Assembly: GCA_000091205.1 (NCBI GenBank)
Contig: AP006486.2
From: Cyanidioschyzon merolae
Taxonomy: Eukaryota
Reading direction: 5' to 3' (one strand)
Length of the DNA stretch: 64,000 bases
Below are positions 3,330 through 63,400 of the stretch, piece after piece. The translations under genes were made by a program, and so were the position numbers. Every line of letters starts with the position of its first letter. The first letter of the stretch is position 1. Below the pieces are notes generated by a model. The model was not told the origin of the DNA and searched no databases. It saw only the letters and a program-made list of their open reading frames with translations.

Positions 3330-4651
3330 AAAGGGCCACAGCGTTCGGCACCCTGGCGCAAGCTTGCCTTAAGCAGTTACGTCACACGCATTCACTGAAG
3401 CACCTTCCAGTGGAGTCCAGCGGTAAACGACGCAAGTGTGCCGAACTCAACCCGGTGGACAAACAAAGTCAATCTACCATCATCAGTCGACGTCCTGGTT
3501 AGCGTTTTCAATTGGTAGGTTCGCTAAACCCCTTCAAGATTATCCCCGATCTGCAGATGCTCGAATCGCTCTGCATGCCGGTGCACGCTGCCAGCTGCAT
3601 CATGTGTTCTTGTCCTATGTTACCTGCATTCGCTGCCGACGGTCTTGCCGTCCACGCATCTATCGTACATCATCCAAACAGGTCACGCAGGCGCCCCTAC
3701 CCACTTGCGCGGAGAACCGCGGATCCGAAACTTACCACGATTTCAGGCCTCTTTTGCTTGATCCACTTGGCTCCGTTGTGCACCATCCGTCCTATGGAGA
3801 AGCTCATCACTGAGGGCTTCAAAGGTGTGCGACGAGCACCTGTGATACTCATAGCCGTTCAGCTGGGCTATTCCTATGTGGCAAGCTAGTAGATTAGCCT
3901 AGACCAGGCATTTAGTGTGTGTTAAAGAATAATATCTGTAGCGCGAACTTATTTGCGAGACGTGATATGCGCCATTGCCCATCCCTTGACTCTGCGCTGC
4001 CCTTGCGTTGGGGAGAATTGCTGTCTCTTCCAGAATGCCGCGGTTTCGAATCGCAACGAGTATATTTGTTGAGATGTGTCAATCGCGTCTGGGAGCGACG
4101 CACACAGCGCCCTGGCGCGAACGCAGCACACGCAGCGTGGCAGCTTCTGAGTCGAGCGATCGACTTCTATTCGATTGTTTAGTATGCAGTGTGGGTATTG
4201 TGCTGGAATGCTGCGGACTCTCGATGAAAAACATCATGTATCATCAGAGCGGCGATTAAGTCCCCGCTTGGGGCAAGCCACTTGTATGGTACGGTCTGCA
4301 CTGTATCAAGGCTGGACTGCCATATACTTTCGCCACGAACAATGTTCGTGGGTAACTGTTAAACTATAATTGTGTTTCATTCATCAACATGACGGAGAAT
4401 AAATCCACCAATCACATAACATGTACAAAACGTACAGACCGATTGGGCTGCAATCACCTCGGCAGGTGCGGAACGGGCACCGCATCCCCGAGGTGAGCCT
4501 GGCTCTCTGGAGCGGGCGCGCTGAGAACACCGGCCAGTAACGGGATCACTCCCACGCGAAGCGCTTCGAAATATCAAAGAACATTCTTCGTTTCGTTGAG
4601 CGTTTAACGGCATTGCCACGTGAAATTCCTCTCGTTTGGAAGTAGACGTTT

Positions 4652-16067: not shown

Positions 16068-17209
16068 ATCACTCAGTCGCTCGGAGAGTGGTCACGCGTC
16101 TAGAGTCGTGCCTCCGTACGAGAACCGACGATGCGTTTCAGCCACGCTTAGCGTGGGGTTATATGAGGATGCGTCAGGATTAGTCCAGTGAGTCTGGCGA
16201 GGCCCCAATTTCATGGGACATTCCGTTTCTCTCCAACGCGTTCCAGCGCCTTAGACCGCGCGATAGATATTCCTGTGGTTCTCTGGTTGGATCATTGATG
16301 CGTCGTTGAGCCGAGCACGATGAAACGCTTCTAGGTGACGCTTATAAACATGGCGTATCTCGAACATATATACCATTTAGCGAATCGTGCTGCGAAGAAT
16401 CGAGGCAATATGAGATGGATCTTGTGCAGGCTCACCATTCAAAGAAGAATTCAATGCAATACACATAGGGCGCCAGCGTTTTCTTTACAAATATGACAAA
16501 GGAGCTTCCAGTTCATCTCGGCATCTTATGCCTAGCCAGAGACTCGGGAAACTATTCTCCGGAAGACACATTTGCACAAGGTTTGCAGAATTGCACTGGA
16601 GACAGAGGCTCTTTCTCTCGTTTTCCTGAATACCATAATGCGGACTTGCAGGTCTGGTTCATCCGGAATAAACTCGGAAACAGGACGGATCCCAAAGTCT
16701 GTTTCTTCCGTACGAACTTGAGCATGCATTGGCAGTAAATGGGCGGAAGAACTCAACGTCAAGTGTAGCTGAGGAACGCAAGTGCGTTCAGTTCTGATAT
16801 TCTAAGCCCGCTGCATGAGACCAGATGCAGTCGGCGAAGCTCTTATTGACGGTTTCCACAAAGGCGAGAGCCGCCCCCTTTGTGATAGTGCTTCGTATAA
16901 TAGCATTTCTGACCACGGATGCACCTTACACACAGGTGCCACAAATCTGCAGTCTGGCAGCGACTACGCCGTTCTCTGAAGGCCGCTTCCACGCCCTACA
17001 ATGCTCAAGGCATTTTTCACGATAGGAATAGAAGTTAGATTGATTCAGCGTTAGAGATTGCACTGCTGCCGAGCGCACCGCACATCCCCTTGGTGCAGCA
17101 CTGGAGGCTGTGGCAGCAGCAGCTACGACACTGGCACCATACGAAGGCAGCCTTGCTTGGCGTTGCATTTGCAAGCGTCCCTTCGAGACCTGCGTCCGTT
17201 ATACTCTGA

Positions 17210-20200
17210 GCAGTGAATCCCGGAACAAGTGCATCAGCTCGCACTTTCCTTCTTGTTCCATTTGTCACAAGTACTCATCAAAAGAAATGTATATTTTAGA
17301 TCGGAGAAAGGTCCCGAAAACATTAGATTTCGTCACTGCTAGCTTCCCCGGAAAACGAGCTTGCTTCTTCCAGCCTGTTATTCGTCGGTCAGCAGGCGGA
17401 TACATCCCCGCCCTTCACGTATTGCTTATCCTGAACGTTGTGCTTCCACAACAGAACTTATCAAACCCGCTGGACGCGACGGTCGCCTCGTCAATCCGTT
17501 CCTCCCCATACGTTCTCGGTGAGATACCACCAAAGAAGTCACAGCATGCGCAGTTTCCCCATCGGTGATACAGGCGGAGAAAAATACGCCCGGATGCAAG
17601 AGCAAAACGAACATGCTTCTTCGGGAGACCGTCGCGCATTGAATGAAGCACCCCTCGTTTCGCACTGGAGCGCGAAGGCCTCGCACTCGACGGATGTTCG
17701 TCTCGATATCCTGAACCTTATGCCCGACAAATGGTAGACATGTGCACGGCGACTCGAGCAGGGTCAAACCGCTGTTCGTGCAGCAGAGACAAGAGAGCAT
17801 GATGACAATATCGGCCCTAGCGACGGTGCTATCCTGTGGTCGCCTACGTATCGCGATTCGGACAGGATTGGTCAACGCCTTAGCCTTCGTCGAGGAACGC
17901 TTCGCGGCTTCTCCTCCACCATGTCATTCTATGCTGTTCTTCGTAGACTTCGCTTTCCGTGTCTTAGACGCTGTCAAAGAGTACGCAGGTGGAACTAGCG
18001 CTGAGCCGCCCTTCACGTCAGACTATTCTTCCTGGTTCAATGCGTCGAATGCATCTTGTCTGTTATCAGACACCATCTCTGTGCTCACTCACCTATAGAC
18101 GAGTCATTCGCATCCGTAAAATTATTCTTCAACGAGTACGTCTTCGAGAACAGGTCCTGTACTTTCACTGGGCCTGAATTGCTGCGTTCCTCCTGCGCTC
18201 TTTCTGCTGAGGGAGCGCAGAGGCGCGCTCCGTGCCGCGAGCGTACTCGCCACGGAGAAGTCTGTAATGAGGCACTTGAGCAATCGTGGTTGCTTGCGTA
18301 CACAGAAAAGCACGAATGTCAGCGCCGTCGTCCGCACCGTGTGCCTGAGTCCCAGGAAAAAAGGATTTGGATTATAGCGACAACATCCACACTACTCCGC
18401 CAGCGAGACGACGGGGCGACGGAGAAAGACAGGAAAATGCCGGACAAACAGGAAGTGAATGATCCTCCCAGAAAGAGGACGAAGAAGAACCAGAAGGGAA
18501 AGCGGCCGGGGCAGACATATCAGCGAGAAACAGTTGCCGAAGCCTCTCTACGGAAACACATCAATGGGGGCAAGCCTCCAAGATGTGGGGTTCAGGACAC
18601 CATTCGGGATTTCGAGGCTTCTCACTCGAGGAAGTCTCCACGGGCTTCTCTCGCCGAGGCGCCCGTCGTCAAACACATGTTCGCGTGAGTGCTGGACGCA
18701 GAGCTCCCCGCGCTCCAGGCTCCTCTGGATTTTGCCAAGTAAATCTTCGACCGGCAACGCAGCTGATGCTCGCGACGGTGGATGCAGCACGGCCTGATCG
18801 AAGAATCAGGGACTTGTATGAATGCCTCTGAGCGTACGATGACTCGTCGGCGCGCCGCGTCGGCAACAGGAACGTCTACAACGCAGGTGCCACAGATGAA
18901 ATGAACCACCAAAAATTCAAGTTCCTTGGCGGGTCATTGTTGAGCACCTCACCGGGCATACCCAGTCAGCGTTGTACGCTTGTGCACTCACACCAGTGGT
19001 CCGGAGCGTGAGCACTGATGGAAGGGGTTCATAGGGGTGCCCATGGAGGCAAGTGACGAGCTGGAGGCTACGGAGGAGCGCGAGATGGCAGCGAGTTTCG
19101 AGAAGATGCCGCAGCAAGAGCGGTGGGCGCTTCAGATCGTTCAAGTTTATGGTGCTGCTGAGGGCTATTGGACCGCCGAACGTCGTTCCTGAGTATGTTT
19201 GAAGCGCGACGCCTGCCATGCTTGCATGTTGCGCTACTTCGGTTTCCTGAACAAAACCTCCACTGTAGAGCACCCTCCCTGGCCGAGTCCGAACTCCCTG
19301 GCCTACTCAAGCGCTTCTTGGACGCGGTCCATGCACGCGACTTCTAGGGCCACGATATTACTGTACTGTACTGCACTGCAGTGTACTGGACTGCACTGGA
19401 CTGCACTGCACTGTACTGCACTGTACTGTACTGCTCTGTACTGCACTGCTCTGTACTGCACTGCACTGTACTGCTCTGTACTCCTCTGTACTGCACTGCA
19501 GTGTACTGGACTGGACTGGACTGCACTGCACTGGACTGCACTGTGCTGTGCTGTGCTGTGCTGTGCTGTGCTGTGCTGTGCTGTGCTGTGCTGTGCTGTG
19601 CTGCACTTGACCGCACTGCCCCGTCCTATCCTATACTGTACTACCTGCTCAATGAGCTACAACTGGTCTTTGCGAGCACATATGAAGCACTCGAGCATCT
19701 TTACGAAGAGCATTGGCGGGGGCCGTTCAAGGTTGTTTCTTGACGCAGAGTCCAAGGAAGGAACTGGACAGGTGCAGTGCAGACCGACGGAATATCCCTC
19801 TGGTTGCACTCTGTTCAGTCGATACCCGAGTCCCGCAAAGAGGCTCGTTTCAATCGCTCATCGTCGATGAAATCTAAAATTTCGCGGCGGGTGTAGGTCC
19901 CGGGTTGCAGGACGTCATAGCTGTCGCCGTGCTCCCAGGTCAGGACGACGAAGCCAAGGGCCTGAACTGAAAGCAGCTGGAGAAGCTAAATGTTTCCAGA
20001 GCTCCGTCTTATTGAGGGTCGCGCATGACAGGTGTCAGAAGGCATACCGACAGATGGAATGGACGCGGCAGGACCCAGATAGACGCCCTGAATACCGTGC
20101 GGAGCAGAGGTGGTCCTTCGAACGCTTCAGCCGAAGATTGCGTGAGCGTCTGAATGGCTCGTGCGGAAGGCGTCTCTGGCAGGCGTACCCGAGGCCGCGC

Positions 20201-20935
20201 TGAGGTCGCCAACTTTTTCGGTTGCACGGAGACAAGAAACGTCCATTGACCGTCCACTTCCATATATTGGAGAAGGAAATGACCGACAAGTCGCTTCGTT
20301 CGAAGGCAGCGTAGGGTTCTTGATGTGTTGCGGCGTGCAGTGGCTCCACTCTTGCTCGTCGAATGCGAGCGCACGACAAGTGCAGGAATCGACTCTTCAG
20401 GAATCCCATCGGTGAGTTCGGGACGACAAACACTCCTTGCGGACACGGGTGTGCGCTGAAACCGATTGAGAAGAAGCGAGTGAAGCGCAGACAGCTGTAT
20501 GAGATGGTGTACGGCAGGGTGACCAAACCTCAGATACCGGTGCATTCGAAGGCGAGCGGCTTTGTATAGTGCGATTCTACCAGCAAGCTTGTGCGCAGGC
20601 GCTTTCTGCAGCGAGACTTGAACGTCCCGCTCAACGTTCGGAAATGTCACGTGCCTCCGGAGCGCTCAGCGGCTTTGCATCGAGCGGGTTGTCGGGGAAG
20701 AATCGTTCGCTTCTCAGCGTAGGCATTGTGCTGGAGCGCTGAGGACTCCCGATGCAGAACAAATCAGTAGCCGGGATCGAGGATCGTGGATTTCCGCCTG
20801 GAGCAAGACACTGGTATGGAACGGTGTATCAGTTCGGAATAGGCTGGAGTGCCGCTTATCTAGATCGGGAAAGACTTTCGTAGGCAACTGATGAGTGATT
20901 ATGGTGTAGGATTACTCAATAAGATGGGCAAAGTT
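17210..20935. repeat. Copy A of a ~3.6-3.7 kb direct segmental repeat. It is ~98% identical to 29773-33355 and has no recognisable coding content.
   Basis: The ORF-track translations are near-identical between copies: 17426-17875 vs 29991-30440, 18056-18688 vs 30621-31253, 20009-20650 vs 32434-33075. Nucleotide alignment starts at ~17210/29773 and ends at ~20935/33355. Confidence 0.9.
19358..19612. repeat. Pentanucleotide minisatellite: degenerate (ACTGC/ACTGT/ACTGG)n followed by (CTGTG)14.
   Basis: I read this directly from the sequence. The ORFs over it (Cys/Thr/Leu/Ala-rich, 19199-19870 and 19344-19616) are translation artefacts of the repeat. Confidence 0.9.
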
Positions 20936-21341
20936 GAGCGAGCCCTGTCGTCAACGCCGTGCCTGCGTTAGCGACGGCTTTCGCAGCTGTATGCCAGGCT
21001 TCCTGACACCAGCGGATTCGGCGAACGAAAATATTTCGAAGTTCAAAAAATTCCTGACGACCTCGATTATTCTGAGATGTACATAGACGAAATTCGTGGA
21101 TTCCTGACAACGCATCTGGCTCGAGAATTGTACGCACCACAGACTGGATCCTAATCGCAGATCTGTTCATTCCTGTGGAAGAGATAAATGCGGGTCGTTC
21201 GCTCGTCGACCTTGACACCTCTAAATCGCAACATCATCCGTTGTTCATCGATGTGGAGGAGCCTCAAAGCAACAGCTCAGCTAGTGTCTCGCAAAATGCG
21301 ACTCGTGCGAGCCTGCTGAGCGCAAATCCTCAGAGAGGCTT

Positions 21342-22148
21342 TCACGAACTTTTGTTAGATTGTCGCTCCGAGCATCGCATTCGTCGAGCAACTGCTGCAA
21401 CAAATGGAAGCAGAATCTTCCCAGTAAGGTCATCGATCAAAAGGATATTGTACAGGGCCGAGGCCGCCCAGACGACTTTTCGAAGGCCTGCTCCAGGTGG
21501 CGAGGCCGGTTGCCCTCGTTTGCATGATAGTTCGTGCCAGAGGATGATTCTTCGCACGACCTCCACTCTTGCAGGTGGTACACATATCAGGGTAAATACA
21601 GACGGCGGAGAATCATTGGCTCCCTCCACAACAAGCTGATAAACGAAGCAGTCCGCTTCGAGGTGCTCTTTGGACTGAGACACCAGAGATAGACCGTCGA
21701 GAATCGAGTTGAGCTCTACTGCACCAGTTTCCCGCTGCAATAGATTCATTGAACGTTTCATGGTTTCTGCAATGAGATCCTTTTGAATAGGCGTGTCGCT
21801 ATCGGTGTTGTAGAGTGCGACAGCAACAAAGTCGACAACCAAAGGACCAAAGTTCGGAAACTGCGAGAGCATATAGTCCAGGATAACGCGCTCTGCCCAT
21901 GACGAGCGACCTTTCGCTCCAAACACTAGAGCGCATACCGTCGCCTGCGGGGAAGTGGACTGTCCGAAGTGGGGAAAGACCTTCTCCGACAAAAAACCAT
22001 AGATTCCTTCTGTTGCTGGTGCAGCCGCTACAGATACCCCTTGCGACAAGGGCAGACCCAAAAGACTGGAACCTGATAGGTCTCCACGGCTTGAACTGGT
22101 ACCCGGCTCCCAAAACGAACTTGGTTCTGTAACTATGAGAGTTTCCAT
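21342..22148 (-). CDS. Hypothetical protein (268-aa ORF). I recognise no family.
   Basis: It is a moderately long ORF with non-repetitive composition. An overlapping ORF at 21799-22242 (-) in another frame leaves the 5' end unclear. Confidence 0.3.
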   Translation of the reverse strand: METLIVTEPSSFWEPGTSSSRGDLSGSSLLGLPLSQGVSVAAAPATEGIYGFLSEKVFPHFGQSTSPQATVCALVFGAKGRSSWAERVILDYMLSQFPNFGPLVVDFVAVALYNTDSDTPIQKDLIAETMKRSMNLLQRETGAVELNSILDGLSLVSQSKEHLEADCFVYQLVVEGANDSPPSVFTLICVPPARVEVVRRIILWHELSCKRGQPASPPGAGLRKVVWAASALYNILLIDDLTGKILLPFVAAVARRMRCSERQSNKSS

Positions 22149-25100
22149 ACCTTGTCTGCGGAAACCTGTTCGAAGCAGAAACCGGCTCGACGAATTGCTC
22201 TGTTTGCACTTTTGCGAAATCCGCGAACAATCTCGTTGGCAACCGTCGCTCAGTGCCGATGCATTTCGAGAGCGCTCTGTTGATGTACTTCCCCTAAACC
22301 TATTTCAGATTCCATTGAAACACTCAGCAGCCTATTCAGTTCATGCTTTTCGAAGTTTTTCGAAATTTGTTGCCCGATATCCAGCCTCGACAATGGTGGG
22401 ACAGCAATAAAGCTACACAGTTTCAAACGTGATTTTAGGGTTCTCAGTCGTCTTTCTGGAAAAGCTACATCTAACCAATGCCGCTGGAATTCGTTACGTC
22501 TCGGGTATCAAAATGATTCGCGATGCAATGGAGCAAGACTTCAACTTAGCCGATATCATCATCAAAATCGTACAAAGAAGGTTCCAATATTCTCCATTAC
22601 CTTTCGCGTTGTGTGGTTAAATAATGTTTCCTTCAAGTTTGTAATGTTTCTATTTCAAGGCAACTCATGAATGCAGGAATTCGCGGAGCAGAATTGAAGA
22701 TAAAAAATCTCGACGTCGCCCATTGACGGTTAATTTACAAGCTCACTCAGTATAGTCACTAAATTTGTCACGTCAGGTAATCGGTATCGTTCGAATGACA
22801 AATGCTACTCTCTATCCAGTGAAGAAATAAGATTCGACACAAGACTGGTGACTTTCACAGGGGATGATGCCAGAGACTCTCGTCTGTTATGTGTCCATAG
22901 AAATGGATCTTCGACTCGGACTTCAGTTCTCGCACAATCTACGTCCAGTGGAAAGGTACATAATCGCTTTTCAGGAGCGAAGCTTCGATGGACCGAAATT
23001 CCGCATCTTATTATCAAGCCTGGGTGTTCCCTCTGTCTCTGGTACATTCACGGATAACACCGTGTTTCTCAAATGCTCTTCGGTTCGGAAAATAGCATAG
23101 AACAGAGAATGGGACATCTCACACAAAACTACTTATTCTGCTTCGATTACACCGATCGATAACGTCTTTTGAGCTTCGAAGAACAGGTTCAGTGAAGCAA
23201 ATACAGGTATCGATGACTCAGATCGTCCTCGGCACGAGCCAGTGATCGATGCCCTCGGCGACGCGCCTGAGGCCGACAGGCTCGTCGGAGCTCTTCCCGG
23301 AAAAGCCCTTGACACTGGAAAATGGCGGCTTTGCGAAGAGGCATATAGAAAAGAGACGAACAAGGTCCAAACAATAAATACATATTGCTTGTTTATCGAT
23401 GGATACACACACTCAAGCACAGCAGGTTTGCCGGGGGAACAACAGTATTACTGCAACAAAAGAATCCGGGAACGTTCCGAAAAAATGTGCGTACCGCTCA
23501 AAGAGAGCTCGCTCATTCTCCGGCGGGACGCCTTCCTGCACGGAGCTCGCCGCCTGGGCTTTCGCTCGAACGGAAAGCACTGCACATCGCTAGTCTACGA
23601 TACAGCGGTCGTTGCGGGATCCCTTGGAATGCACTTTTTCCCCGCCGGAACACAGAGGCCGCGTACGAGAATACGCGATCCTTCACAATGTGCCCGGCAC
23701 GGCGCTTAGCTCGTACTTAAGACGGTGTACCTCGAGTGCATCGGGGACCTCGAAAAAAGCATTTCGTAGTGGCACAGTCGGCACTGATGGCCATTTCTCT
23801 CCCCAGCTCCTCGCGTACACACACACACGACGCGCCACAGCCGATGCCCAGATATGCAGTTTGGCCGATGCCAAGGGCGTCGCTCGCTTCGTGTCTCATA
23901 TCCGCCAGGCCTCCAAGAAGGAGCACGTGGGCGAAGAATATGCATGGTCACGCTGGACCTAGCCGGCATTCACCTACAGGGTCGCGTGATGGAATCGATA
24001 ATGCAGAGACGAACGGGAGAGGACACAGTCACTAGGCTGTACCGCACGACAGAGCTCTTCATGACCGGCGCTTCGTCGAAGCCCATCTGCTCAGAGGATA
24101 GACAGAAAGAGATCGACCTCTGAAGAATACTCCTGGAAGGCGGAGAAGCCAGGGAGCAGATCGACCTGCCGCCAATGAGCAGCTTGCCCTCAGAAGCGAT
24201 GCTGCTTCTGCATTCGGCGTGGGGCTCAGAGCCCCTAGAGGGACCAGACCCTCGGCTTTTCCACGGGCACCGTGCTGACGCTCACATCAGCCCCGCGATG
24301 CGCGCCTGTCTCGCTTCGTTGTGGAGTGGGTGTCTCTGCGACAGATGCGAAAATGCGACTGATGGAGGACTGAAGCACCAACGAAGAGGAGGGGTTGATC
24401 AACGACATGGAGTTCATAAAGCGAAGTAGGCGCCATTTCTCCAAAGATTGAAACAATGCACGAACCGCTGGAGGAAGAAAAGCGAAAGGATTGTAAGAAT
24501 GCTTCGAAAGAAATGCAAAACATGAGGAGCAGAAGTTTCTCACAACGACGAGTGGACCTATTGGCTTCTATCAGGGCCGATGGTATAGGTATTTCGATCG
24601 CCATCAACAGCAAGCTTCCGGGACGCTTCACGAGCCCCTCTGAGCTCGACCACACCCCATGCACAGAAATGGACTACGCGTAGGAACAAAACGCAACACA
24701 GATGCGCGGCCACGCGAAGTTGCTCCGCAATACGACACCCGTCAGCCCGGACCCAGGAAGAGCAAACCCATACACCTGCGCTCCTATGAGACGTAACGAG
24801 AGGTCAGACACGCAGGTGGCAACCGACGCCAATTGGAAGGCTTAAGATCCGAAGTATCCGACTCTAACCTGAAGGCGTAGGCTCTAGGCGCACGTACATC
24901 ATGTTCTTCTCAGCGGAACCGAGCAAATGAAGGAATGGTCCGATAAGCGAGCGAGCGAGCGAGCCAGCGAAACTGATTCTAGTTACGGAAGCGTTCGCAG
25001 CATTGCGTCAAGCTCGTGGGATCTATAGGAACGATGGTCACCAGAAGGTAAGGTTCGTCGATGTCCATCACGGTCATTGGCTCGTGTTGTGGAGTATGTT

Positions 25101-27211
25101 GGCAGCAGACGAGGAGCGTGCCTCGAAGCGGACGGTGAGTTATCGAATCGAACGCTTTGCTCTTGCTCCTGCAGCAGTCATGGTGGTTTTCTAGGGAATC
25201 GCTTAGCAGAGGTCCGTGATCGTCGGGAGCGTCACAGCGTGCGGCAACAGGGCAGAGAGTCGGGGCAGGCCATGTATACCCTCCAAGGCCGTTTGCCGAG
25301 CGATGCAACATGAGTTCACGAGCCGCAGCGTGACGCTCGAGAAGGACGTGTGGCGGACATAAGGGAACACCTGACCGCAACCTAACATCACTGCCGCGCC
25401 GGGAGCACCGACGCTGTACACAAAGAATACGAATGCGGCGAGCGAAGCGTGGATTACAAACTTCAACTATGCTTCGGATGCCAAGAAAGCATCGGGAGGC
25501 GGCGAGATCAGGGTGTGAACGCTACCGTCAGCATCGTTTGACTGCTGACAAAGGGGCCAGAGGGAAAAGAGATACCGGCGCCTTTGAAACCAAAGAGAAA
25601 AGAGAGGGAACGGTCGCAGTCACCGAGTAAGCCGGCGAACCTGGTATTGATGAGAATAGAAAAAGAACCAAAACTGTGGTGTATATGCCCGTGTCAGTGG
25701 AACCGTTTCGTTGTATTTTGACGTAGGTGTAGCTCCTGTACTGGTGGTCAGCAGGCTTCGGCCAAAGCTTGACGAGTCTTTCCGATAGCATAGGAGCATT
25801 AGCGTTTCTGAGACATGCGCCGGACCTAGCGTTCAAGCTTCCGCTCTGTCTCGGTCGGCATCTGAGGCCTCGGCATGAATACATCACGTGGAAAGTTCTT
25901 CTCGGGTACCGTTGCATTTCATACATATCATGCAGTGTCAGTTCGTTATAAGCAAGCAGAGATTCCAGCCCGTGTAGTTATCACGTGCCAAGTTGAGAGA
26001 GCACTTCGGCGAGGGAGACCGAGGTAATAGGCAACGGGTAGAGCCCTCAGAAGAAAAAGTAGAGCAACGAGCATCTGCGACGATCGCGTTCACCAGCTGC
26101 ACTTTGGCGCCTACTATGCGAAGGCAATGGCGCTTGGGGTGTTCGATGAGAGAAAATCTATCTACGTTGGCATAGGGACACACGTTAGTGCAGCGTGCAC
26201 TGCATTCCTCAACGGATAGACATCCAAGGATGGAACAGGCCGAAACGTGTGGAATACTAGCTTCCGAGAGCAGATATTGCGAGGGATGCTGCAAGTGTCC
26301 GCCTCGTTCCGTCGAAGTGGACAGCAGTCTCGAACGAGACCGTAAAGCAGGTAGTCGATGAGCCCGAGCAACACGACGCTTGCACTGCCGTGGGTATCTG
26401 ACATTTGCCTATCGCTGACATGCTACAGAGTCTTCTTCGAAAGGGGCCCATCCCAGACCGCGAAGACTCGGCGCTCTAGTGGGCATTGCGCGCAACCTCG
26501 AACAGGCTCACTCGCCGCAGGACATAGGCAGACACAGAATATGGTGGTCCAGAGTTCGCGGCGCTTCGAAAACCAAAGTGGCGTCTTTACACATGCTCAG
26601 GAACGTGAGGCGCCACAAAGAACCAAATCTTCGACTTTTCATGAAAACCTGCTTTCTCGCGGACATGTTATGGCCTCAAGATAATCATGCATCAATTGTG
26701 AATCTGGATGGATGGCTTGTACGTCAACATCCTCACTTTACGCAGACGTCCTGATGTCAGACGACTTCCATCTGCAAGAATCAAATATCACAGTTTCCAA
26801 TGATTTGCTGCTAGCGCACACCATCTTTGGCCTCTGAAGGTCACGACGGTGCATATGTGCTCGAAACCTGGCGTGAAACACATTCCTGACTCTCGTTATC
26901 CGAACTCATATAAACCTCCACGCAGCGATTATCTTTTGACACCTGTAAAGTCTTGTATGTGCGACTCCCACGGGCTGCACTGGTCTCTCGCAAGGCCCCG
27001 CCCATGCGATTGCAGCAACCAGCTCAACCCGAATGGAGCCGAATGTAGAAGATGACCGCTGGATAGAGCAGGGCCCAACATGAAGAAACTCAGGCTTGTC
27101 AATGAGCTGGCGGTTCAGAGCGCGACCATACAGCATAACGGATTTCGGAAATAAAACTGGACTCAGGGTCAGCGAAACTTCCGCAGTTAACACAGCAATG
27201 GGAACGGCGCT

Positions 27212-27760
27212 TCAATGTCGTTGCCGCTGCTGCAACAAGAAGCTGCAGATCTCCCGAAGCTTCTCATGCTGAATTCCATTGCAAGCCTCAAAAAATTCGG
27301 TCAATTCCATGTTTTCTTGCGTGTTTTCGTAAGTAAGAGCCTGCAAGACCATATCAAGTTTGTCTAACTGGTGAACAAAAACGGCCGCTGGGGTATTTGC
27401 TTCCTCGTACTCGCGAAAGAGTGCGTACAGTTCGCAACCCGCTTCAGAGCCAGAGAGGACGTCGTCCCGGATTTTCCGAAAAGCCTCATCCTCGAGGACT
27501 GCCTTTTCCCGTGGCGAAATCCCACACTTTGGCGTTATGTCTCCAACGAGGGATTCCGCCAGATCATGCACCAAGGCAAGTTTCAGTACCTGAGCATCCC
27601 CGTCACCAAGCAAAAGCGCGAGCATCGCCACACCGTACGAGTGACTAGCGACTGTCTCGGGCACACACACACCCGAGCGCACCCATCCTGTTCGTTGCAG
27701 CGCCTTGAGTCGCGCGACAAGTTCGAAGAACTGAACGACCTGCGAAGGCCTCATATCCAA
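27212..27760 (-). CDS. HD-domain phosphohydrolase, HDDC2/YfbR-like 5'-deoxynucleotidase family.
   Basis: RTGWVRSGVCVPETVASHSYGVAMLALLL...LALVHDLAESLVGDITP...FVHQLDKLDMVLQA carries the H...HD...D metal-binding motifs and is colinear with HDDC2. Confidence 0.75.
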   Translation of the reverse strand: MDMRPSQVVQFFELVARLKALQRTGWVRSGVCVPETVASHSYGVAMLALLLGDGDAQVLKLALVHDLAESLVGDITPKCGISPREKAVLEDEAFRKIRDDVLSGSEAGCELYALFREYEEANTPAAVFVHQLDKLDMVLQALTYENTQENMELTEFFEACNGIQHEKLREICSFLLQQRQRH

Positions 27761-28339
27761 CGCTATTAAGCGTTCGTGCGCTCATGCGCGCACGACCCAC
27801 GAAGCGCCGCGCTGCGAGCACAACAAGCTAGCATCGCTGCAACAATACAGCGGAAGTGCCAAGCTGTGCAAAACACCGCATGGTACCCTGTCCAAACATC
27901 CTTTCAGAAGCTGCTCGTTTTGGTTGGTCACATCATCGCCACACAGGTACCAGGGATCCTCGATTGCGCATTTGATACTAGTGCGTAGTGCAGCCTACAT
28001 CGTTGCACGCCGCACTTCCTACTTCCACGACCCATTCGTACCCTCATACGTCCTGGGTGCCGCTAGAGATCGCAGGCAGGCGCAGGTCATCGCCAACCGC
28101 TCATCATCAACGCAGCGCCTATGTGCCCGGCTACCTGACTATCTGGATACCTGGCTATCTGGATGTGTGCTTTGCAATGCGTCGCAATAGCTGCATCACG
28201 CGATTCCACAAATGGCGTGGCAGCATTGCCGCTGGCGCAGCGCGCGGCAGCTGTCTCGCGATAATGTACGGTGGGGGTTTGCAGTTGGCGCGCGCAGTTC
28301 AGCGAGCGTTTAGTGATATCTTTTGAGCAAGAGTGGCTG

Positions 28340-29413
28340 ATGACGGAGAAACATAAGGTTGCTATACTTGGATCAGGTAACTGGGGCAGCACGGTGGCGA
28401 AGATCGTGGGATCGAACGTCAAAACGAAGACAGAATCGTTTGATCCGGAGGTTCGCGTGTGGGTATACGAGGAGCTTGTCGACGGACGGAAACTTACCGA
28501 GATTATCAATAGCGATCACGAGAATGTCAAGTACCTTCCAGGTAAGAAGCTTCCAGAGAACGTGGTTGCCGTTCCGGACCCGATCGAGGCTGTCGCTGGG
28601 GCCGATATTCTCGTCTTTGTGCTGCCTCACCAGTTTGTGCGAGGCCTCTGTGCCAAGCTCCGAGGGAACGTTCGCGAGGGCGCTTTCGCAGTTTCGTTGA
28701 TTAAAGGCGTGGAGTTTGATGAAAACGGTATTGTGCTGATTAGCGACGTGATTTCGAAGGAACTTGGTGTGGAGTGTTCCGTTCTGATGGGCGCAAATAT
28801 TGCCAATGAGATAGCAGATGAGCAGTTCAGTGAGGCCACCATCGGGTACAAGAATGCCGCGCACGCGAAACTATTGCAAATCATTTTCCAGAAGCCCTAC
28901 TTTCGGATCGCAGGTGCACCAGATATCCCAGGCGTAGAGATCTGTGGGGCCCTAAAAAACGTGGTTGCTCTTGGAGCCGGTTTCTGTGATGGCCTCGGTT
29001 ACGGAAACAACACGAAGGCGGCAGTTATTCGTTTTGGACTCCTGGAAATGGTTCGTTTTGCGAAAAAGTTTTTCAAGAATGTCCAGTATACAACGTTCTT
29101 GCAGTCTAGTGGTGTGGCGGATCTCATAACGACTTGCTACGGTGGCCGAAATCGTAAATGCGCGGAGGCATTTGCGCGGGCTGGTGGCCGGAAGAGTTTC
29201 GAAGAACTGGAGGTGGAACTGCTCAATGGCCAAAAGCTCCAAGGTACGCTCACAGCGAAAGAAGTACATGAGGTACTCCAGCGCCAAAAACTTATGAAAG
29301 AGTTTCCATTTTTTGAAGTGATATATGATATCGTTTACGAAGGTAGACCGGTTGAGCAGTTCCTGCAGGAGCTGAGCGAGAAAGAGCTCTCGCTTGAAGG
29401 AAACATTGAGTGA
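28340..29413 (+). CDS. GPD1: NAD+-dependent glycerol-3-phosphate dehydrogenase.
   Basis: KVAILGSGNWGSTVAKIVG (NAD-binding GxGxxG), VFVLPHQF, GALKNVVALGAGFCDGLGYGNNTKAA and LITTCYGGRNRKCAEAF are colinear with eukaryotic GPD1. The ORF is open from 28271; I chose the Met at 28340 because the homology starts there. Confidence 0.9.
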   Translation: MTEKHKVAILGSGNWGSTVAKIVGSNVKTKTESFDPEVRVWVYEELVDGRKLTEIINSDHENVKYLPGKKLPENVVAVPDPIEAVAGADILVFVLPHQFVRGLCAKLRGNVREGAFAVSLIKGVEFDENGIVLISDVISKELGVECSVLMGANIANEIADEQFSEATIGYKNAAHAKLLQIIFQKPYFRIAGAPDIPGVEICGALKNVVALGAGFCDGLGYGNNTKAAVIRFGLLEMVRFAKKFFKNVQYTTFLQSSGVADLITTCYGGRNRKCAEAFARAGGRKSFEELEVELLNGQKLQGTLTAKEVHEVLQRQKLMKEFPFFEVIYDIVYEGRPVEQFLQELSEKELSLEGNIE

Positions 29414-29772
29414 AGCTGTTTCATGAATGTTCGTGTCACCGTAGTTCGCGGGCTCGTCAAGCTTAATTTTAGCTGATGCGTAAATGCTTTCGTTTATCTA
29501 TTCGGGTGTACTGAGGATATGTCTGCGGCTCTCGTGTGGCGGGGTATTCAAGCACATGCACATTCCGACACCTTTGCACAAAAGCGAAATCTCTTGAAAG
29601 ATACAGCATCAATCGCTAAGGTGCGGTGCCTAGCCTGGATTGGAAGTGTCCCTTTATACGCGCAAATAGACTCTGCGGACAATGCGCATTTGTCCGCTAT
29701 GTGCTCAAGCAGAAGCCTTTCCACACTTCCAACCTGCAAACGATGAAAGTCGGATTGGTGGGAGCATAATTA

Positions 29773-32700
29773 GAGCAGTGAATCCTGGAACAAGTGCATC
29801 AGCTCGCACTTTCCTTCTTGTTCCTTTTGTCACAAGTACTCATCAAAAGAAATGTATATTTTAGATCGGAGAAAGGTCCCGAAAACATCAGATTTCGTCA
29901 CTGCTAGCTTCCCCGGAAAACGAGCTTGCTTCTTCAAGTCTGTTATTCGTCGGCCAGCAGGCGGATACATCCCCGCCCTTCACGTATTGCTTATCCTGAA
30001 CGTTGTGCTCCCACAACAGAACTTATCAAACCCGCTGGACGCGACGGTCGCCTCGTCAATCCATTCCTCCCCATACGTTCTCGGTGAGATACCACCAAAG
30101 AAGTCACAGCATGCGCAGCTTCCCCATCGGTGATACAGGCGGAGAAAAATACGCCCGGATGCAAGAGCAAAACGAACATGCTTCTTCGGGAGACCGTCGC
30201 GCATTGCATGAAGCACCCCTCGTTTCGCACTGGAGCGCGAAGGCCTCGCACTCGACGGATGTTCGTCTCGATATCCTGAACCTTATGCCCGACAAATGGT
30301 AGACATGTGCACGGCGACTCGAGCAGGGTCAAACCGCTGTTCGTGCAGCAGAGACAAGAGAGCATGATGACAATATCGGCCCTAGCGACGGTGCTATCCT
30401 GTGGTCGCCTACGTATCGCGATTCGGACAGGATTGGTCAACGCCTTAGCCTTCGTCGAGGAACGCTTCGCGGCTTCTCCTCCACCATGTCATTCTATGCT
30501 GTTCTTCGTAGACTTCGCTTTCCGTGTCTTAGACGCTGTCAAAGAGTACGCAGGTGGAACTAGCGCTGAGCCGCCCTTCACGTCAGACTATTCTTCCTGG
30601 TTCAATGCGTCGAATGCATCTTGTCTGTTATCAGACACCATCTCTGTGCTCACTCACCTATAGACGAGTCATTCGCATCCGTAAAATTATTCTTCAACGA
30701 GTACGTCTTCGAGAACAGGTCCTGTACTTTCACTGGGCCTGAATTGCTGCGTTCCTCCTGCGCTCTTTCTGCTGGGGGAGCGCAGAGGCGCGCTCCGTGC
30801 CGCGAGCGTACTCGCCACGGAGAAGTCTGTAATGAGGCACTTGAGCAATCGTGGTTGCTTGCGTACACAGAAAAGCACGAATGTCAGCGCCGTCGTCCGC
30901 ACCGTGTGCCTGAGTCCCAGGAAAAAAGGATTTGGATTATAGCGACAACATCCACACTACTCCGCCAGCGAGACGACGGGGCGACGGAGAAAGACAGGAA
31001 AATGCCGGACAAACGGGAAGTGAATGATCCTCCCAGAAAGAGGACCAAGAAGAACCAGAAGGGAAAGCGGCCGGGGCAGACATATCAGCGAGAAACAGTT
31101 GCCGAAGCCTCTCTACGGAAACACATCAATGGGGGCAAGCCTCCAAGATGTGGGGTTCAGGACACCATTCGGGATTTCGAGGCTTCTCACTCGATGAAGT
31201 CTCGACGGGCTTCTCTCGCCGAGGCGCCCGTCGTCAAACACATGTTCGCGTGAGTGCTGGACACAGAGCTCCCCGCGCTCCAGGCTCCTCTGGATTTTGC
31301 CAAGTAAATCTTCGACCGGCAACGCAGCTGATGCTCGCGACGGTGGATGCAGCACGGCCTGATCGAAGAATCAGGGACTTGTATGAATGCCTCTGAGCGT
31401 ACGATGACTCGTCGGCGCGCCGCGTCGGCAACAGGAACGTCTACAACGCAGGTGCCACAGATGAAATGAACCACCAAAAATTCAAGTTCCTTGGCGGGTC
31501 ATTGTTGAGCACCTCACCGGGCATACCCAGTCAGCGTTGTACGCTTGTGCACTCACACCAGTGGTCCGGAGCGTGAGCACTGATGGAAGGGGTTCATAGG
31601 GGTGCCCATGGAGGCAAGTGACGAGCTGGAGGCTACGGAGGAGCGCGAGATGGCAGCGAGTTTCGAGAAGATGCCGCAGCAAGAGCGGTGGGCGCTTCAG
31701 ATCGTTCAAGCTTATGGTGCTGCTGAGGGCTATTGGACCGCCGAACGTCGTTCCTGAGTATGTTTGAAGCGCGACGCCTGCCATGCTTGCATGTTGCGCT
31801 ACTTCGGTTTCCTGAACAAAACCTCCACTGTAGAGCACCCTCCCTGGCCGAGTCCGAACTACCTGGCCTACTCAAGCGCTTCTTGGACGCGGTCCAAGCA
31901 CGCGACTTCGAGGCCCACGATATTACTGTACTGCACTGCACTGCAGTGTACTGGACTGGACTGGACTGCACTGCACTGGACTGCACTGTGCTGTGCTGTG
32001 CTGTGCTGTGCTGTGCTGTGCTGTGCTGCACTTGACCGCACTGCCCCGTCCTATCCTATACTGTACTACCTGCTCAATGAGCTACAACTGGTCTTTGCGA
32101 GCACGTATGAAGCACTCGAGCATCTTTACGAAGAGCATTGGCGGGGGCCGTTCAAGGTTGTTTCTTGACGCAGAGTCCAAGGAAGGAACTGGACAGGTGC
32201 AGTGGAGACCGACGGAGTATCCCTCTGGTTGCACTCTGCTCAGTCGATACCCGAGTCCCGCAAAGAGGCTCGTTTCAATCGCTCATCGTCGCTGAAATCT
32301 AAAATTTCGCGGCGGGTGCAGGTCCCGGGTTGCAGGACGTCATAGCTGTCGCCGTGCTCCCAGGTCAGGACGACGAAGCCAAGGGCCTGAACTGAAAGCA
32401 GCTGGAGAAGCTAAATGTTTCCAGAGCTCCGTCTTATTGAGGGTCGCGCATGACAGGTGTCAGAAGGCATACCGACAGATGGAATGGACGCGGCAGGACC
32501 CAGATAGACGCCCTGAATACCGTGCGGAGCAGAGGTGGTCCTTCGAACGCTTCAGCCGAAGATTGCGTGAGCGTCTGAATGGCTCGTGCGGAAGGCGTCT
32601 CTGGCAGGCGTACCCGAGGCCGCGCTGAGGTCGCCAACTTTTTCGGTTGCACGGAGACAAGAAACGTCCATTGACCATCCACTTCTATAAATTGGAGAAG

Positions 32701-33355
32701 GAAATGACCGACAAGTCGCTTCGTTCGAAGGCAGCGTAGGGTTCTTGATGTGTTGCGGCGTGCAGTGGCTCCACTCTTGCTCGTCGAATGCGAGCGCACG
32801 ACAAGTGCAGGAATCGACTCTTCAGGAATCCCATCGGTGAGTGCGGGACGACAAACACTCCTTGCGGACACGGGTGTGCGCTGAAACTGATTGAGAAGAA
32901 GCGAGTGAAGCGCAGACGGCTGTATAAGATGGTGTACGGCAGGGTGACCAAACCTCAGATACCGGTGCATTCGAAGGCGAGCGGCTTTGTATAGTGCGAT
33001 TCTACCAGCAAGCTTGTGCGCAGGCGCTTTCTGCATCGAGACTTGAACGTCCCGCTCAACGTTCGGAAATGTCACGTGCCTCCGGAGCGCTCAGCGGCTT
33101 TGCATCGTGCGGGTTGTCGGGGAAGAATCGTTCGCTTCTCAGCGTAGGCATTGTGCTGGAGCGCTGAGGACTCCCGATGCAGAACAAATCAGTAGCCGGG
33201 ATCGAGGATCGTGGATTTCCGCCTGGAGCAAGACACTGGTATGGAACGGTGTATCAGTTCGGAATAGGCTGGAGTGCCGCTTGTCTACATCGGGAAAGAC
33301 TTTCGTAGGCAACTGATGAGTGATTATGGTGTAGGATTACCCAATAAAATGGGCA
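29773..33355. repeat. Copy B of the direct repeat, in the same orientation as copy A. It is ~140 bp shorter because its internal minisatellite is contracted.
   Basis: Same evidence as copy A. It begins ~360 bp after the GPD stop codon. Confidence 0.9.
31924..32026. repeat. The same minisatellite in repeat copy B, contracted: the ACTGN block is ~60 bp instead of ~180 bp, and (CTGTG)8 instead of 14.
   Basis: I read this directly from the sequence. Confidence 0.9.
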
Positions 33356-34507
33356 GAAGAGCACCATAATATCGGTTCCTGAAATTAACCGATACGGCGA
33401 TACTTGCGAATACTGGGATCGTTTCATGAAGCTCATGAGCTAAAATGTATCGAGACAGGACTCGAGCGCTTCCGGCAGGATAACAGAACCCCATGTAAGG
33501 TAGTGTAGTGTTTTTCTTCCGTTCCGGCCCGTGAGATGCTTGAAGACGCCTTGTTGAGTGGTACACAATGTTTCTCAGTGGCGTCCGATCACACTTTGCG
33601 CATCGATTGTCGTTCTAACTGGCTGCTCCAGACTCCAGATATTTCGAGGATCTTGCACGAACAACGGCGCCTAGATTGCTTGCTTCTTGACAAGTATGGT
33701 TCCTTGTTTATGCGCCCCGGGTGAACTTAGATCTTGCTCGGTCTCAGCGCGTATCTACGAGACTGTGATTGCCGCAAAACACGTCAATTAGATCATGACC
33801 AGATATCTATTCCGGCTTATTCTTCGCTGTGCAGCTCGTACCTTGACAATATCTTGACAGCGTCCCTATTAGCGTTCTATATGGGAATCCAGCAACCTGT
33901 ACGCCCATACATGATAGTCTGAAAGTTTCCGCTAGTCACTGCTCCATGCGGTGCAGTTCATACGAGAATGCTCAGAATATTTTTGCCAGATTTTTCGCTG
34001 AAGCTCCCAATAGCCAGCGGAACTTGCTGTCTATAAAGCCGGAAAACGTGTTCGGCCCCTGGGGGAGGCAACTTGTAACCGAGGCGCGGCGCTTCGCCTC
34101 AAGAGTCTGTGGCCTGCGCCGCCTCCTTCGGGCCAAGACTGGAAACACCGGAAAATAACTAAAAGTCAGTTGCGTCGCCAGCGAATGCTCGACAAAGCAT
34201 CGCCAGTACAAGTCAGAGCAGGTGGACGGGTACGCTAGGCATGCAAGACACTGCCCAACCGAGCCGAATTCCACAAAGGAAAAGAATATCCGTCCCGATT
34301 CTATACGAATTCCGCAACAGCTGGAAAAGCGCGCGAGGTAGCATCCGCAGCCCGAGGTCTTTTCGAACCGACGATCTACATGCTCAGTGGAGCGAAAAGG
34401 CATCGCTTCCATAGAGAATGTAAATACACTCACTCTCAGACGCCCTCAGCCGTTTTCGACAGGCCCACTTTCATCGGCTTCAGCTTCGTCCTGCACACTT
34501 CGAGCTT

Positions 34508-60462: not shown

Positions 60463-63400
60463 GCGCCCCGTCGCAACGAACGCAACAAAGTCGTAACCGT
60501 GGCGCTCGACGATAGCGGCAGCAACTTGAAAGCGCCGCCATTTAGCAGCTGAGGCAACATTTCGCCATTGGCGTCGACGGCGCTAGCGCGGAGTGGCTGC
60601 TACAGCCGTGACAGAGGAACATGGACTGTTGAGGTGCTCGTGCTGTTTCTGCCTAGATATTTTTTGCGAATTCTTCGATGTGCATCCGAGGCATTTAAAG
60701 CGCAGAAAGCATTGCTTATGGGATCATGCTCATTTTTAGGGTTCCGGGTGCTGTGTCGAGGTTGACGCATTCGGCGCTGTGCCGCAAGCACTCGCGACGT
60801 TACCGGAGTCAGGATGATGCGCGATACGCTCGAACTAGGGTTCGTAACGTAACTGATATGATAGAGGAATATCTACATAGAAAAGCGTCTGTTGTTCTCT
60901 CTTCCTGACGTGCAGTGTGCTCAGTGCATGCATTCTTCGCGTCTTCGATCACTGTATTTCAAGGCAACAGTGGGAGCTGTGATTCGCGGCGATCAATAAA
61001 ACATGTCGATCATTGACGAATTGTTCACAATTTTATGCCGAAATTTCACTCAATCTGTATCGTTAACCAATAAAATCTCTTCATAAAACAAATTTTCCTC
61101 TGTTTTTTCGGCATCCGCGAAATGGCGATCGACAGCAGCATGATCCCTCTCACGGGACATGCCTCCAGAGGTTCCCTTCTTTTCTCTGCGCACGAAACGC
61201 GTCTCCGACTCGGACCTGAGTCATCGCAGCAATCATTCCAAATGCAGGATTTGTCGCGGTTTTGCACGAACGGAACCGAGACAGATCCAGAGAGCTCAAC
61301 TTGTTATTCAGCCGTGATTGCATTTCGGGAAACGTTTCCTCACAAGAACATCGCGCTCGCCAAATCCTCTACCGAATGGAGCAGCGTCTGCTTGCACGTG
61401 CAGCGGACAGGGTACTCGACAAGGGGCCGAACAGAGGATGCCCATTATCTTTTTGTTCGGCACCGGGCATGGAAATGGCCGAGGATATCGAGGCAAGACA
61501 CGTGTACCTGTCAACGGCATGTATGGCGTGATTCAGGAAGCCTTCGCATGCCACATGGCAGTACTCGGAGGATAAGGCATGAAGGACGTATCGAAACACG
61601 AGACAACAGTCTCGTGTCATCGACTCGAAGAGTGCACCGAGCCTACGCGCGAGGAAGATGACGAGTGGCGCCTGAGACGTTGATTCTAGCTACATTTTGC
61701 GCGAGCAATGCGTCGAAGACAGACGGATGCCGGGAAGTCGGCACGTTGAACGCTGCTATCCACATCAATCAACTGCCGACGACGGAAGTCAATTTAGGAA
61801 AATGACCGACGTTTTAAAGTCCGGAGATAAGAGAAAAGAAAATAGGGCATTCGCGGACGAAGCCAGCAAAGAGTGGTATTCTTGATTGCACGAGAACACT
61901 TCAACTCGGGCGTGTACGTCCGATACATCCAAAAGCACTCTTTTCTTTCCATGCAAACATATGTGTAGGAATGTTAATCACTGATCCAAGGCGTTCGCGT
62001 CGCCATCGATGTGAGGTCCATGCACTGAATGGGATGTTTCTCTCGGCTGTACAGTAGGTCTGCCAAAGTGCACGCCTGTGCATCGCAACGAGGTGCGTTT
62101 CTGAGGTCACCAAAGCAAGGCGATTTACGAGCTTGCTGCGCATCTAGTCCTGTACGAATACGTCCCTGTGGCCTGTCACATATCTGGAGCGATAAAGCGA
62201 TAAATCTGGCGTGTGCGACTTGTCCATATTTTACGCCAGTGCGAGCGGTGAGAGTCGTCGTCTCCATTTTGCTTTCTGATTACGTGCATGAGACGACGGC
62301 CGCAAACGCCTCTGCAACATTTACTCGGTGTTGTCGGGCACCGAAAGATTCTAACAGACAACGTCTGCTTCTCAGAGCGTGACAGGAAACGAGTTCGGAT
62401 GTTTTGAGTTATCAATATAATCGCAGACCTTGAGAGCTCTTCCGATGAGGCTTCTCGCAGGGCCTCCCAGAAGGCATGATGCATGGTTCAGAAAATACGT
62501 CATCTACGGAAAGCGCCGGCCTCAGATCGAAGCGTCCGTCAATTATTCCAAATCAGCCGCATCCTTTGGAAAGAGTCCACGATATGCATGTTTGTGTTCA
62601 GGATCGAGTGGAGGAGGTCATTTCCAAACACACACCAGACAAAGTTCACATCATCGACTGATGAGCCTGGAAAGTAAATCAGCGTGTACGCAGTAATATC
62701 AAAAGATGAAAGGACACTAACCTTCAACTATTTACCAGGAGAACCGTTCGCGGAATGTATGCAAAAGTCTGCCCAAGTGAGACAACTGGACGTTCATGTA
62801 CTCCCTTACTAAGTCGAAACAAGCATGACCCTCTGCTCTACGCGATGCGCGTGACATCGATAAGGACCACGACGCCGTCGTCCGACTTGTCGAAATGGCT
62901 GCTTGCATCCATAAGGCTGTCTTCGGATGCTATGGAGCCCGACACAGATTGAGCAGCTTCATCTGCTTTGCTTTCTGGTCTTCGGCCTTGCCCTCTGGGT
63001 GCAGAGTCACGGCAGCGGCGAAGACGACCGTCACCTGGGCATCCATGCCATCCATGAAGTATTTCTCTTCTTCTATTTTGAATGGTCGAAAATATGTCTC
63101 GTTACATAACACAGACCTAGGTTTCACTAAGTTTGCTCCAACTGAAATTCCGCCCGTATTCGTTGTCTCTGTGAGCTCCTTTCCGGTTCCTTCCCGAAAA
63201 CAAGAAATCATGAATTTGCTTCATGAATACTGTTCATGAAAATTGTTCACATGATCCATACTCGCTTGTGGAAACCAGTCTTAGCTCGCTGAGGAGACCA
63301 TGCAGTATGGAAGTGTCGATCCAGATGTTATCGGTCTTGAACTGATACATGGGGACAACATCGAATAGACACTTGAAGAGACGATGGCGCTCGCATTCAG

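Follow-up and report, generated by a model that had tools for sequence, protein, structure and literature searches.

Abundant unclassified interspersed repeats are carried by the genome of Cyanidioschyzon merolae (PMC1955436, PMC9812998, PMC11050394), where the repeat content was put at 12.7% by RepeatModeler (PMC9812998) and at ~28% in the Ensembl annotation (PMC11050394), and half of the annotated repeats are marked by H3K27me3 (PMC5405695). Among them, the WSV repeat, first called a novel interspersed repetitive element (Matsuzaki 2004), occurs in 253 copies of ~3.2 kb on average, is found on all chromosomes, is transcribed and carries H3K27me3 on about half of its copies (PMC1955436, PMC5405695); it is defined by a truncated open reading frame (ORF) with weak BLASTX similarity to the WSSV protein WSV486 (PMC1955436). 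The genome also contains 26 retrotransposons that lack long terminal repeats (non-LTR), three of them with an intact reverse transcriptase ORF (PMC1955436). Here we describe a repeat element in a 64,000-nt stretch of chromosome 4 of C. merolae 10D (the whole stretch is referred to as the window). Two young direct copies of this element, A and B, bracket an HDDC2/YfbR-like gene and the glycerol-3-phosphate dehydrogenase gene (GPD), and two older relatives, the diverged copy C and the 3'-terminal fragment D, lie elsewhere in the window. With a probability of roughly 65%, A and B are young copies of an interspersed repeat that is discrete, non-coding and non-autonomous and consists of ~3.4 kb plus a variable pentanucleotide minisatellite.

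The size and nature of this unit fit the WSV repeat when the two are compared by description. Both belong to the same organism, their lengths are similar (3.2 kb on average for the WSV repeat and 3.4-3.7 kb for the unit, 3587-3726 nt in A and B), and both are intergenic, interspersed, of no recognised transposon class and equipped with truncated, meaningless ORFs only. However, a truncated ORF is stated for all WSV copies, whereas no ORF is shared between A/B and C, which argues mildly against membership. Three to four copies of the unit were seen in ~80 kb, and none elsewhere in a low-power metagenome scan. SINE/SVA-like elements and processed transcripts mobilised by non-LTR retrotransposons resemble the unit in its fixed 5' start, in the AATAAA-like hexamer before its 3' end, in fragment D, which looks like a 5'-truncated copy, and in the slight 5' shortening of B; unlike them, the unit has neither a poly(A) or simple-repeat tail nor a target-site duplication, and C is missing a 3' part. 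A third likeness is to low-copy repeats or segmental duplications that mediate non-allelic homologous recombination, given two kb-scale direct repeats of >98% identity around unique genes, patchy identity tracts and a candidate recombinant junction (contig L024, see below), but the duplicated block in this case is a pre-existing discrete repeat element and not an arbitrary segment.

Results

A young pair of direct repeats

The window was assigned to C. merolae 10D chromosome 4 by exact protein matches to the 10D TERT, GPD (BAM79186.1), BAM79187 and BAM79188, all encoded on the 513,455-bp chromosome; the exact matches include a 231-aa HNH-like protein and a 289-aa SsuA/THI5-like protein. According to Nozaki et al. 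(2007, PMC1955436), TERT has the tag CMD110C, and its chromosome comprises 513 kb and 140 genes. Judging from this tag number the locus is probably chromosome-internal, and no telomere repeats were found in the window, so that the subtelomeric association considered in the original prediction was not borne out.

Copies A and B were compared by self-BLASTN of the window, boundary alignment and global alignment, and the minisatellite was placed by Tandem Repeats Finder (TRF) (Table 1). Self-BLASTN returned two collinear direct blocks, 17208-19467 versus 29773-32032 (2260 nt, 98.4%) and 19502-20933 versus 31927-33359 (1433 nt, 97.6%), which are separated by the pentanucleotide minisatellite. In the global alignment, 43 substitutions (24 transitions and 19 transversions) and 141 gap columns were counted; 140 of the latter fell inside the minisatellite, which differs by 140 nt in length between the copies. 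Outside the minisatellite, 38 substitutions in 3405 nt correspond to a divergence of 1.12%. The similarity changed from ~99% to random exactly at 17208/29773 and at 20933/33359. Copy A begins 1141 nt after the TERT stop codon (16067), and copy B 360 nt after that of GPD (29413). The original prediction had described direct, same-orientation repeats of ~98% identity, placed ~1.1 kb and ~360 bp downstream of these stop codons around ~8.8 kb and recently duplicated or gene-converted, with few substitutions and a contracted minisatellite. This description was confirmed, with boundaries within 2-4 nt of those first given, 8839 nt between the copies and a divergence of ~1%.

Table 1 Features of the repeat element and of the segment between its two young copies, with positions in the window.
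Feature	Position	Strand	Description	Evidence
Fragment D	4173..4396	+	old copy of the element's last 230 nt	nhmmer, E = 2e-16
Extra 5' stretch	17195..17207	+	..TTATACTCT, 9-13 nt, in A and C but not in B	extended-query nhmmer, flank listing
Copy A	17208..20933	+	3.7-kb non-coding repeat element, 3726 nt	self-BLASTN, boundary and global alignment
Minisatellite of A	19359..19607	+	(TACTG/ACTGC)n, ~50 units	TRF
Hexamer of A	20918..20923	+	AATAAG, 10 nt before the 3' end of A	read from sequence
Single-copy segment between A and B	20934..29772	.	8839 nt	ORF list, Pfam families on metagenome gene calls
268-aa ORF	21342-22148	minus		ORF list
HDDC2/YfbR-like HD-domain gene	27212-27754	minus		ORF list, Pfam
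GPD	28340-29413	plus	glycerol-3-phosphate dehydrogenase	ORF list, Pfam
Copy B	29773..33359	+	3587 nt, shortened by minisatellite contraction	self-BLASTN, boundary and global alignment
Minisatellite of B	31925..32028	+	same pentanucleotide, contracted, ~21 units	TRF and alignment
Copy C	62774..64000	-	old diverged copy, cut by the window end, ~1.4 kb more beyond	nhmmer
Second family	22300-23093 and 24977-25733	+	copy in two parts	
Second family	45801-47203	+		
Second family	52316-53719	+		
Second family	60610-61968	+		

Older copies share the ends of the unit

A search of the rest of the window with the unit by nhmmer returned the two older relatives, C and D. Within the window, copy C matched unit positions 1463-2124 (E = 9e-32) and 2422-2958 (E = 5e-24). 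Its 5' part is complete (E ~1e-124) in the orthologous metagenome contigs L025 and L031, which run past the right end of the window. Copy C aligns from unit position 2 (L025 7808; E = 8e-124) and corresponds to unit 1-2124 and 2416-2958 at 51-64% identity (~57% overall), without the minisatellite. Fragment D covers unit 3494-3721 of 3726 (E = 5e-18 with a family profile built from A, B and C) and stops within ~5 nt of the 3' boundary of A and B; the sequence upstream of it showed no detectable homology to the unit.

At the 5' end, an nhmmer search with an extended query (A versus L025) carried the A-C homology only 13 nt further left than the A/B boundary. The flanks that meet this boundary read GTTATACTCT before GAGCAG in A, TTTATACTCA before GAGTGG in C and GCATAATTA before GAGCAG in B. 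An exact 9-nt run common to A and C (TTATACTC plus the next base) abuts the boundary, where the sequence of B is unrelated. According to these alignments, the ancestral element probably began with this extra stretch. Because A and C share 9-13 nt that are missing from B, copy B would be a slightly 5'-shortened derivative and most likely derives from an A-like copy. Conservation is high at this end, where A/B and C agree at 20 of the initial 27 nt, compared with 57% overall. Beyond the ends of the element, the similarity of the flanks was not significant for A-B or A-C, and the value for the 120 nt upstream of B and C (z = 2.6) was treated as chance.

The identity of A and B therefore begins within 13 nt of the 5' end of C and stops within ~5 nt of the 3' end of D. 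As the limits of the young pair coincide with those of much older copies, the unit is a discrete element rather than arbitrary duplicated intergenic DNA, a point that the original prediction had not made. The earlier guess of a dispersed family was supported to the extent that a ~57%-identical copy and a 3'-terminal fragment sharing the ends of the unit are present in the window.

An ordinary segmental duplication, in which template switching during replication or ectopic repair copied a 3.6-kb intergenic piece once to a place 12.5 kb away, would account for the presence of just two near-identical copies whose known relatives all lie within ~66 kb. It would also suit the want of transposon hallmarks, the junction microhomologies (GAGCA/GAGCG after both 3' ends, matching the first bases of the element) and the other rearrangements of the same region in wild strains. 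Nevertheless, we consider it unlikely, as it requires that the two breakpoints landed by chance no more than 13 nt and ~5 nt from the ends of the much older C and D; by a rough estimate, random breakpoints would match both old ends with a probability of ~1e-5 to 1e-4.

The family is old and evolves like neutral DNA, with no conserved core; when unit 1-2958 was divided into 150-nt bins, A and C were uniformly 51-64% identical in all of them. As far as accessible sequence shows, it would also be a low-copy family. When the A/B/C family profile was run against ~80 kb of accessible sequence, the only extra member was D. A scan of the JGI metagenomes with the conserved 5' motif (20 specified bases), which is weak for old copies, found orthologues of A, B and C only, and the same motif gave no match in IMG/VR, again with little power for old copies.

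Coding and RNA content of the unit

No match above noise was obtained in Pfam for nine ORFs of the unit. The ORF with the best codon-usage score (18005-18688) retrieved its own cluster only among 5.8 billion proteins, with no viral match; the codon-usage log-likelihood itself is a weak and uninformative measure in the C. merolae genome. Among the 10D and metagenome copies, variants at codon positions 1/2/3 numbered 3/6/4 in ORF 18056-18688 and 2/8/3 in ORF 32434-33075, with nonsynonymous changes in excess and third positions without bias in the ORFs tested. Coding controls from the same loci gave seven synonymous and three nonsynonymous changes in TERT, and nine and one in GPD. Furthermore, no reading frame was open in both A and C, and tblastx scores were alike across the six frames. 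Protein coding was rejected on the combined absence of Pfam matches and homologues, the non-coding substitution pattern and the lack of a frame in common with C, in agreement with the earlier observation that the repeat holds no recognisable protein. Population diversity was discarded as a measure of constraint, because exact protein identity had been used to retrieve several of the loci, so that the query genes seem more invariant than they are.

Rfam gave no match in the window at gathering thresholds and none in 16068-21341 at E <= 1, and no tRNA was found in the window. Since the unit adjoins TERT, it was also examined for a telomerase-RNA template. Neither unit contained a template that would pair with the C. 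merolae telomere repeat AATGGGGGG, and CCCATTCCCC and CCCCCCATTCC did not occur in either unit with one mismatch allowed. The published telomerase RNA candidates of C. merolae sit on chromosomes 13 and 16 (PMC1955436), and a telomerase RNA gene beside TERT was rejected for both reasons. For an ungapped 466-nt block of A, B and C, RNAalifold returned a covariation term of +7.0 for the plus strand and of only -4.7 for the minus strand, and ~40% of the consensus pairs were broken in copy C. A conserved RNA structure was rejected as unconvincing on both strands, with two effective lineages only. The idea that the unit bears a non-coding RNA, put forward in the original prediction, was thus not upheld by any of these searches. 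The unit shows no coding or known-RNA signal, and we found no evidence of any cellular role.

The ends of the unit could also be transcript ends, with A, B and C as paralogues of a functional transcription unit (a long non-coding RNA or a small-protein gene). Such a reading would agree with the sharp, conserved 5' end (20/27 nt) and with the hexamer 10 nt before the 3' end, which is AATAAG in A and AATAAA in B (33343-33348) and may, from its sequence, act as a poly(A)-signal-like motif. In addition, only two variable sites were present in a 520-nt stretch (18747-19264) among 13 close copies, and repeats of C. merolae have been reported as transcribed (PMC1955436). Each of the three long copies follows a protein gene of the same orientation at a distance of 0.36-1.1 kb, namely TERT (A, 17208), GPD (B, 29773) and a DEAD-box helicase gene (C, L025 7808), but this pattern has a chance probability of P = 0.125 (n = 3). 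Against a transcription unit stand the flat A-C identity, near saturation and without a conserved core, the absence of Rfam matches and of a conserved ORF, and the RNAalifold result given above. We therefore regard this reading as rather improbable.

Ends of the element and possible routes of copying

The second copy would have arisen by copying of the element from end to end, rather than by a randomly placed segmental duplication. Our first preference would be retroposition of a transcript spanning the unit, aided by the few non-LTR retrotransposons of the genome; our second would be another copy-and-paste or recombination route. The fixed 5' start, the hexamer close to the 3' end, the solo 3' fragment D and the 5' shortening of B are all compatible with retroposition.

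Copies A and B end in GAGCAG...GCAAAG (reverse complement CTTT...GCTC). The best alignment of the two ends scored 9, whereas shuffled sequences scored 8.2 on average and 13 at most, and no terminal inverted pair was found. No convincing target-site duplication was detected either, the longest k-mers shared by the flanks being 5-6 nt and not adjacent to the ends, and neither a poly(A) nor a simple-repeat tail was present at the 3' end of A or B. A DNA transposon with terminal inverted repeats, or a miniature inverted-repeat transposable element, was rejected for want of such repeats and of a target-site duplication. Helitrons are recognised by a 5'-TC, a 3'-CTRR, a subterminal hairpin on the 3' side and insertion between A and T. 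The ends found here (GAGC...AAAG) and flanks that are not A and T led us to reject this class as well.

The first five bases of the element are nearly repeated after its 3' end, as GAGCG after A and GAGCA after B, an observation made post hoc on two cases; they could be a junctional microhomology or a recombination core. One could go further and suppose that the unit is a still-active, unclassified non-autonomous mobile element that integrates at a short GAGC(A/G) core, with the A-B pair as a recombination cassette that amplifies or relocates GPD and HDDC2 in wild Cyanidioschyzon. We hold this to be a speculation with little chance of being right. Metagenome contigs place GPD and the unit beside the 268-aa ORF, beside the Img2 locus and beside a cupin gene.

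LTR retrotransposons carry TG...CA termini, a 4-6 bp target-site duplication, a primer-binding site, a polypurine tract and gag/pol. The proposal that A and B are the terminal repeats of an LTR retroelement, or of an IS-flanked composite transposon carrying HDDC2 and GPD, is effectively refuted. It would make sense of direct repeats around an 8.8-kb segment and of a GPD-unit module in other metagenome contexts (L001, L005 and L024), but the termini are GAGC...AAAG and not TG...CA, the outer flanks (TACTCT versus AGCACC) show no target-site duplication around the pair, and no reverse transcriptase, integrase or transposase ORF is present in the unit or between the copies. Moreover, C and D exist as solo elements, and no LTR retrotransposons were detected in the genome of C. 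merolae by Nozaki et al. (PMC1955436). The dismissal of an LTR retroelement in the original prediction is thus justified by termini of the form GA...AG and by the conserved host genes between the copies, in addition to the missing target-site duplication.

Junctions in independent assemblies and exchange between the copies

The junctions were checked in independently assembled hot-spring metagenome and SRA-derived contigs from several samples, 98-99.6% identical to the window. The junction between the TERT side and A was found in four contigs (L016, L019, L028 and L032), that between A and the 268-aa ORF in L007-L014, that between GPD and B in L001, L003-L006, L020-L024, L030 and L033, and that between B and the right flank in L017 and L020. 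As all four repeat/flank junctions recur in independent contigs, an assembly artefact is excluded, and both copies are present not only in the finished reference but also in wild populations. That one copy was duplicated in the reference, or that a mis-join occurred there, has nothing in its favour beyond the general risk that attends repeats and can practically be struck off, because 43 sites and the length of the minisatellite distinguish the copies, the junctions recur in several samples, and the reference was finished to 100% (PMC1955436). An artefact of this kind was what the original prediction had named as a possible refutation.

Both copies were present in every sampled strain, so the A/B pair predates the divergence of the sampled wild strains (~1% in the unit). 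The A-B distance in 10D is not above the between-strain A-A or B-B distances (0.7-1.4%), and the 13 close copies diverged in a star-like manner without sorting by the genomic context of A or B. The differences between A and B are mildly patchy, with a longest identical run of 568 nt (permutation P = 0.04). Gene conversion between the copies would give this pattern and may in part keep A and B alike, but the signal is suggestive only. Phasing the two copies in the metagenomes as proof of conversion was rejected as unreliable, since short-read assemblies cannot resolve the repeat. The minisatellite tract between fixed anchors ranged from 145 to 325 nt among 12 copies/strains, a range subject to the same phasing caveat.

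Several contigs depart from the 10D arrangement. In L024 (JGI 3300050378), positions 111-6634 run from GPD (a 369-aa variant) through a full unit to the 268-aa ORF, so that the flank left of B is joined to the one right of A. This may be the junction predicted for unequal crossing-over of B with A (a tandem duplication) or for an excised circle, or it may be a chimeric assembly path. In L001 and L002 (position 4674), homology to the window begins at 23009, with RHD3/Sey1, clathrin-adaptor small chain and Img2 genes upstream, so that HDDC2, GPD and the unit are joined leftward to the Img2 side instead of to the 268-aa ORF. The 10D-type junction at 23009 (L010 and short contigs) and the Img2-type junction (L002) occur in the same sample; either strains differ by a rearrangement, or the segment is duplicated in some genomes. 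In L005 (position 773), a cupin-domain gene abuts GPD at 28290 in the place of HDDC2; it ends 27 nt before the GPD start codon, and the junction falls at a GGCGCGC microhomology. This contig represents either a rearranged or duplicated GPD copy or a chimera.

Homologous recombination works efficiently in C. merolae, where gene targeting relies on it. The main consequence of the unit is the 3.6-kb direct homology around HDDC2 and GPD, a substrate for unequal recombination, by which the 12.5-kb interval could be duplicated or deleted. The suggestion that the repeats might recombine unequally gained plausibility from L024, which has the predicted order of GPD, unit and 268-aa ORF, though a chimeric path would look alike.

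Other repeats and genes in the window

The 268-aa ORF between A and B has no accession in the 10D protein set and no Pfam match. It is intact in many metagenome contigs, where it forms a cluster of five variants, and its codon-usage score is near that of TERT; it may be an unannotated gene. The segment enclosed by A and B also carries fragments of a second old dispersed family of ~1.4 kb, whose copies (Table 1) are ~65% identical to each other and show no frame that stands out. A 1.9-kb insertion (23094-24976) interrupts the copy that lies between A and B, and another, inverted fragment of this family sits at the breakpoint of L001.

A 1.4-kb inverted repeat is also present, with arms at 34377-35795 and 40866-42289 that are 96-99% identical and lie around 5.1 kb containing HNH-like (36855-37550), SsuA/THI5-like (38225-39094) and SCAMP (39897-40691) genes. 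The same inverted pair occurs in the metagenome contig L017. An ORF in one arm (41594-41776) contains ...VVFTPPYSPWFDPIHG..., a stretch similar to the DDE motif of Tc1/IS630-type transposases, and Pfam and PDB searches of the arm ORFs gave nothing significant. The arms are probably decayed copies of a class II transposon. Repeat DNA accounts for ~27% of the window, which holds the A/B/C/D family, the second 1.4-kb family and the inverted pair; this share is in line with the Ensembl figure for the genome.

Discussion

The reading of A and B as copies of a discrete element draws on the coincidence of their limits with those of C and D. Several observations weigh against it. No hallmark of any transposition mechanism is seen at the ends of A and B. 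The final 770 nt of the unit are missing from copy C, with no homology detectable for that 3' part, and its 3' truncation is not explained by a simple retroposition that truncates at the 5' end. The three long copies and the one fragment known all lie within ~66 kb, the motif scan of the metagenomes was weak for old copies, and there is room for local duplication in place of genome-wide mobility. The signal of gene conversion may be an assembly mosaic, as short-read metagenome assemblies cannot phase a two-copy repeat of 3.7 kb. In addition, ORF 17742-18098 has three to four synonymous changes against one nonsynonymous change among close copies (4-5 sites only), a weak hint, though not one to be dismissed, that it may be a small lineage-specific ORF; indels interrupt its reading frame in the old copy C.

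The finding is largely ordinary. It is a well-delimited addition to a known kind of C. merolae repeat and raises no new biological question by itself. C. merolae is a model with a very simple, finished genome, yet 13-28% of it is unclassified repeat DNA. At this locus, the two limits of one such element can be read from a young pair together with an old copy and a fragment, which also show it to be non-coding and to evolve neutrally. Such a clean case is useful for repeat annotation, and the GPD/HDDC2 interval between the copies may be subject to copy-number variation driven by recombination.

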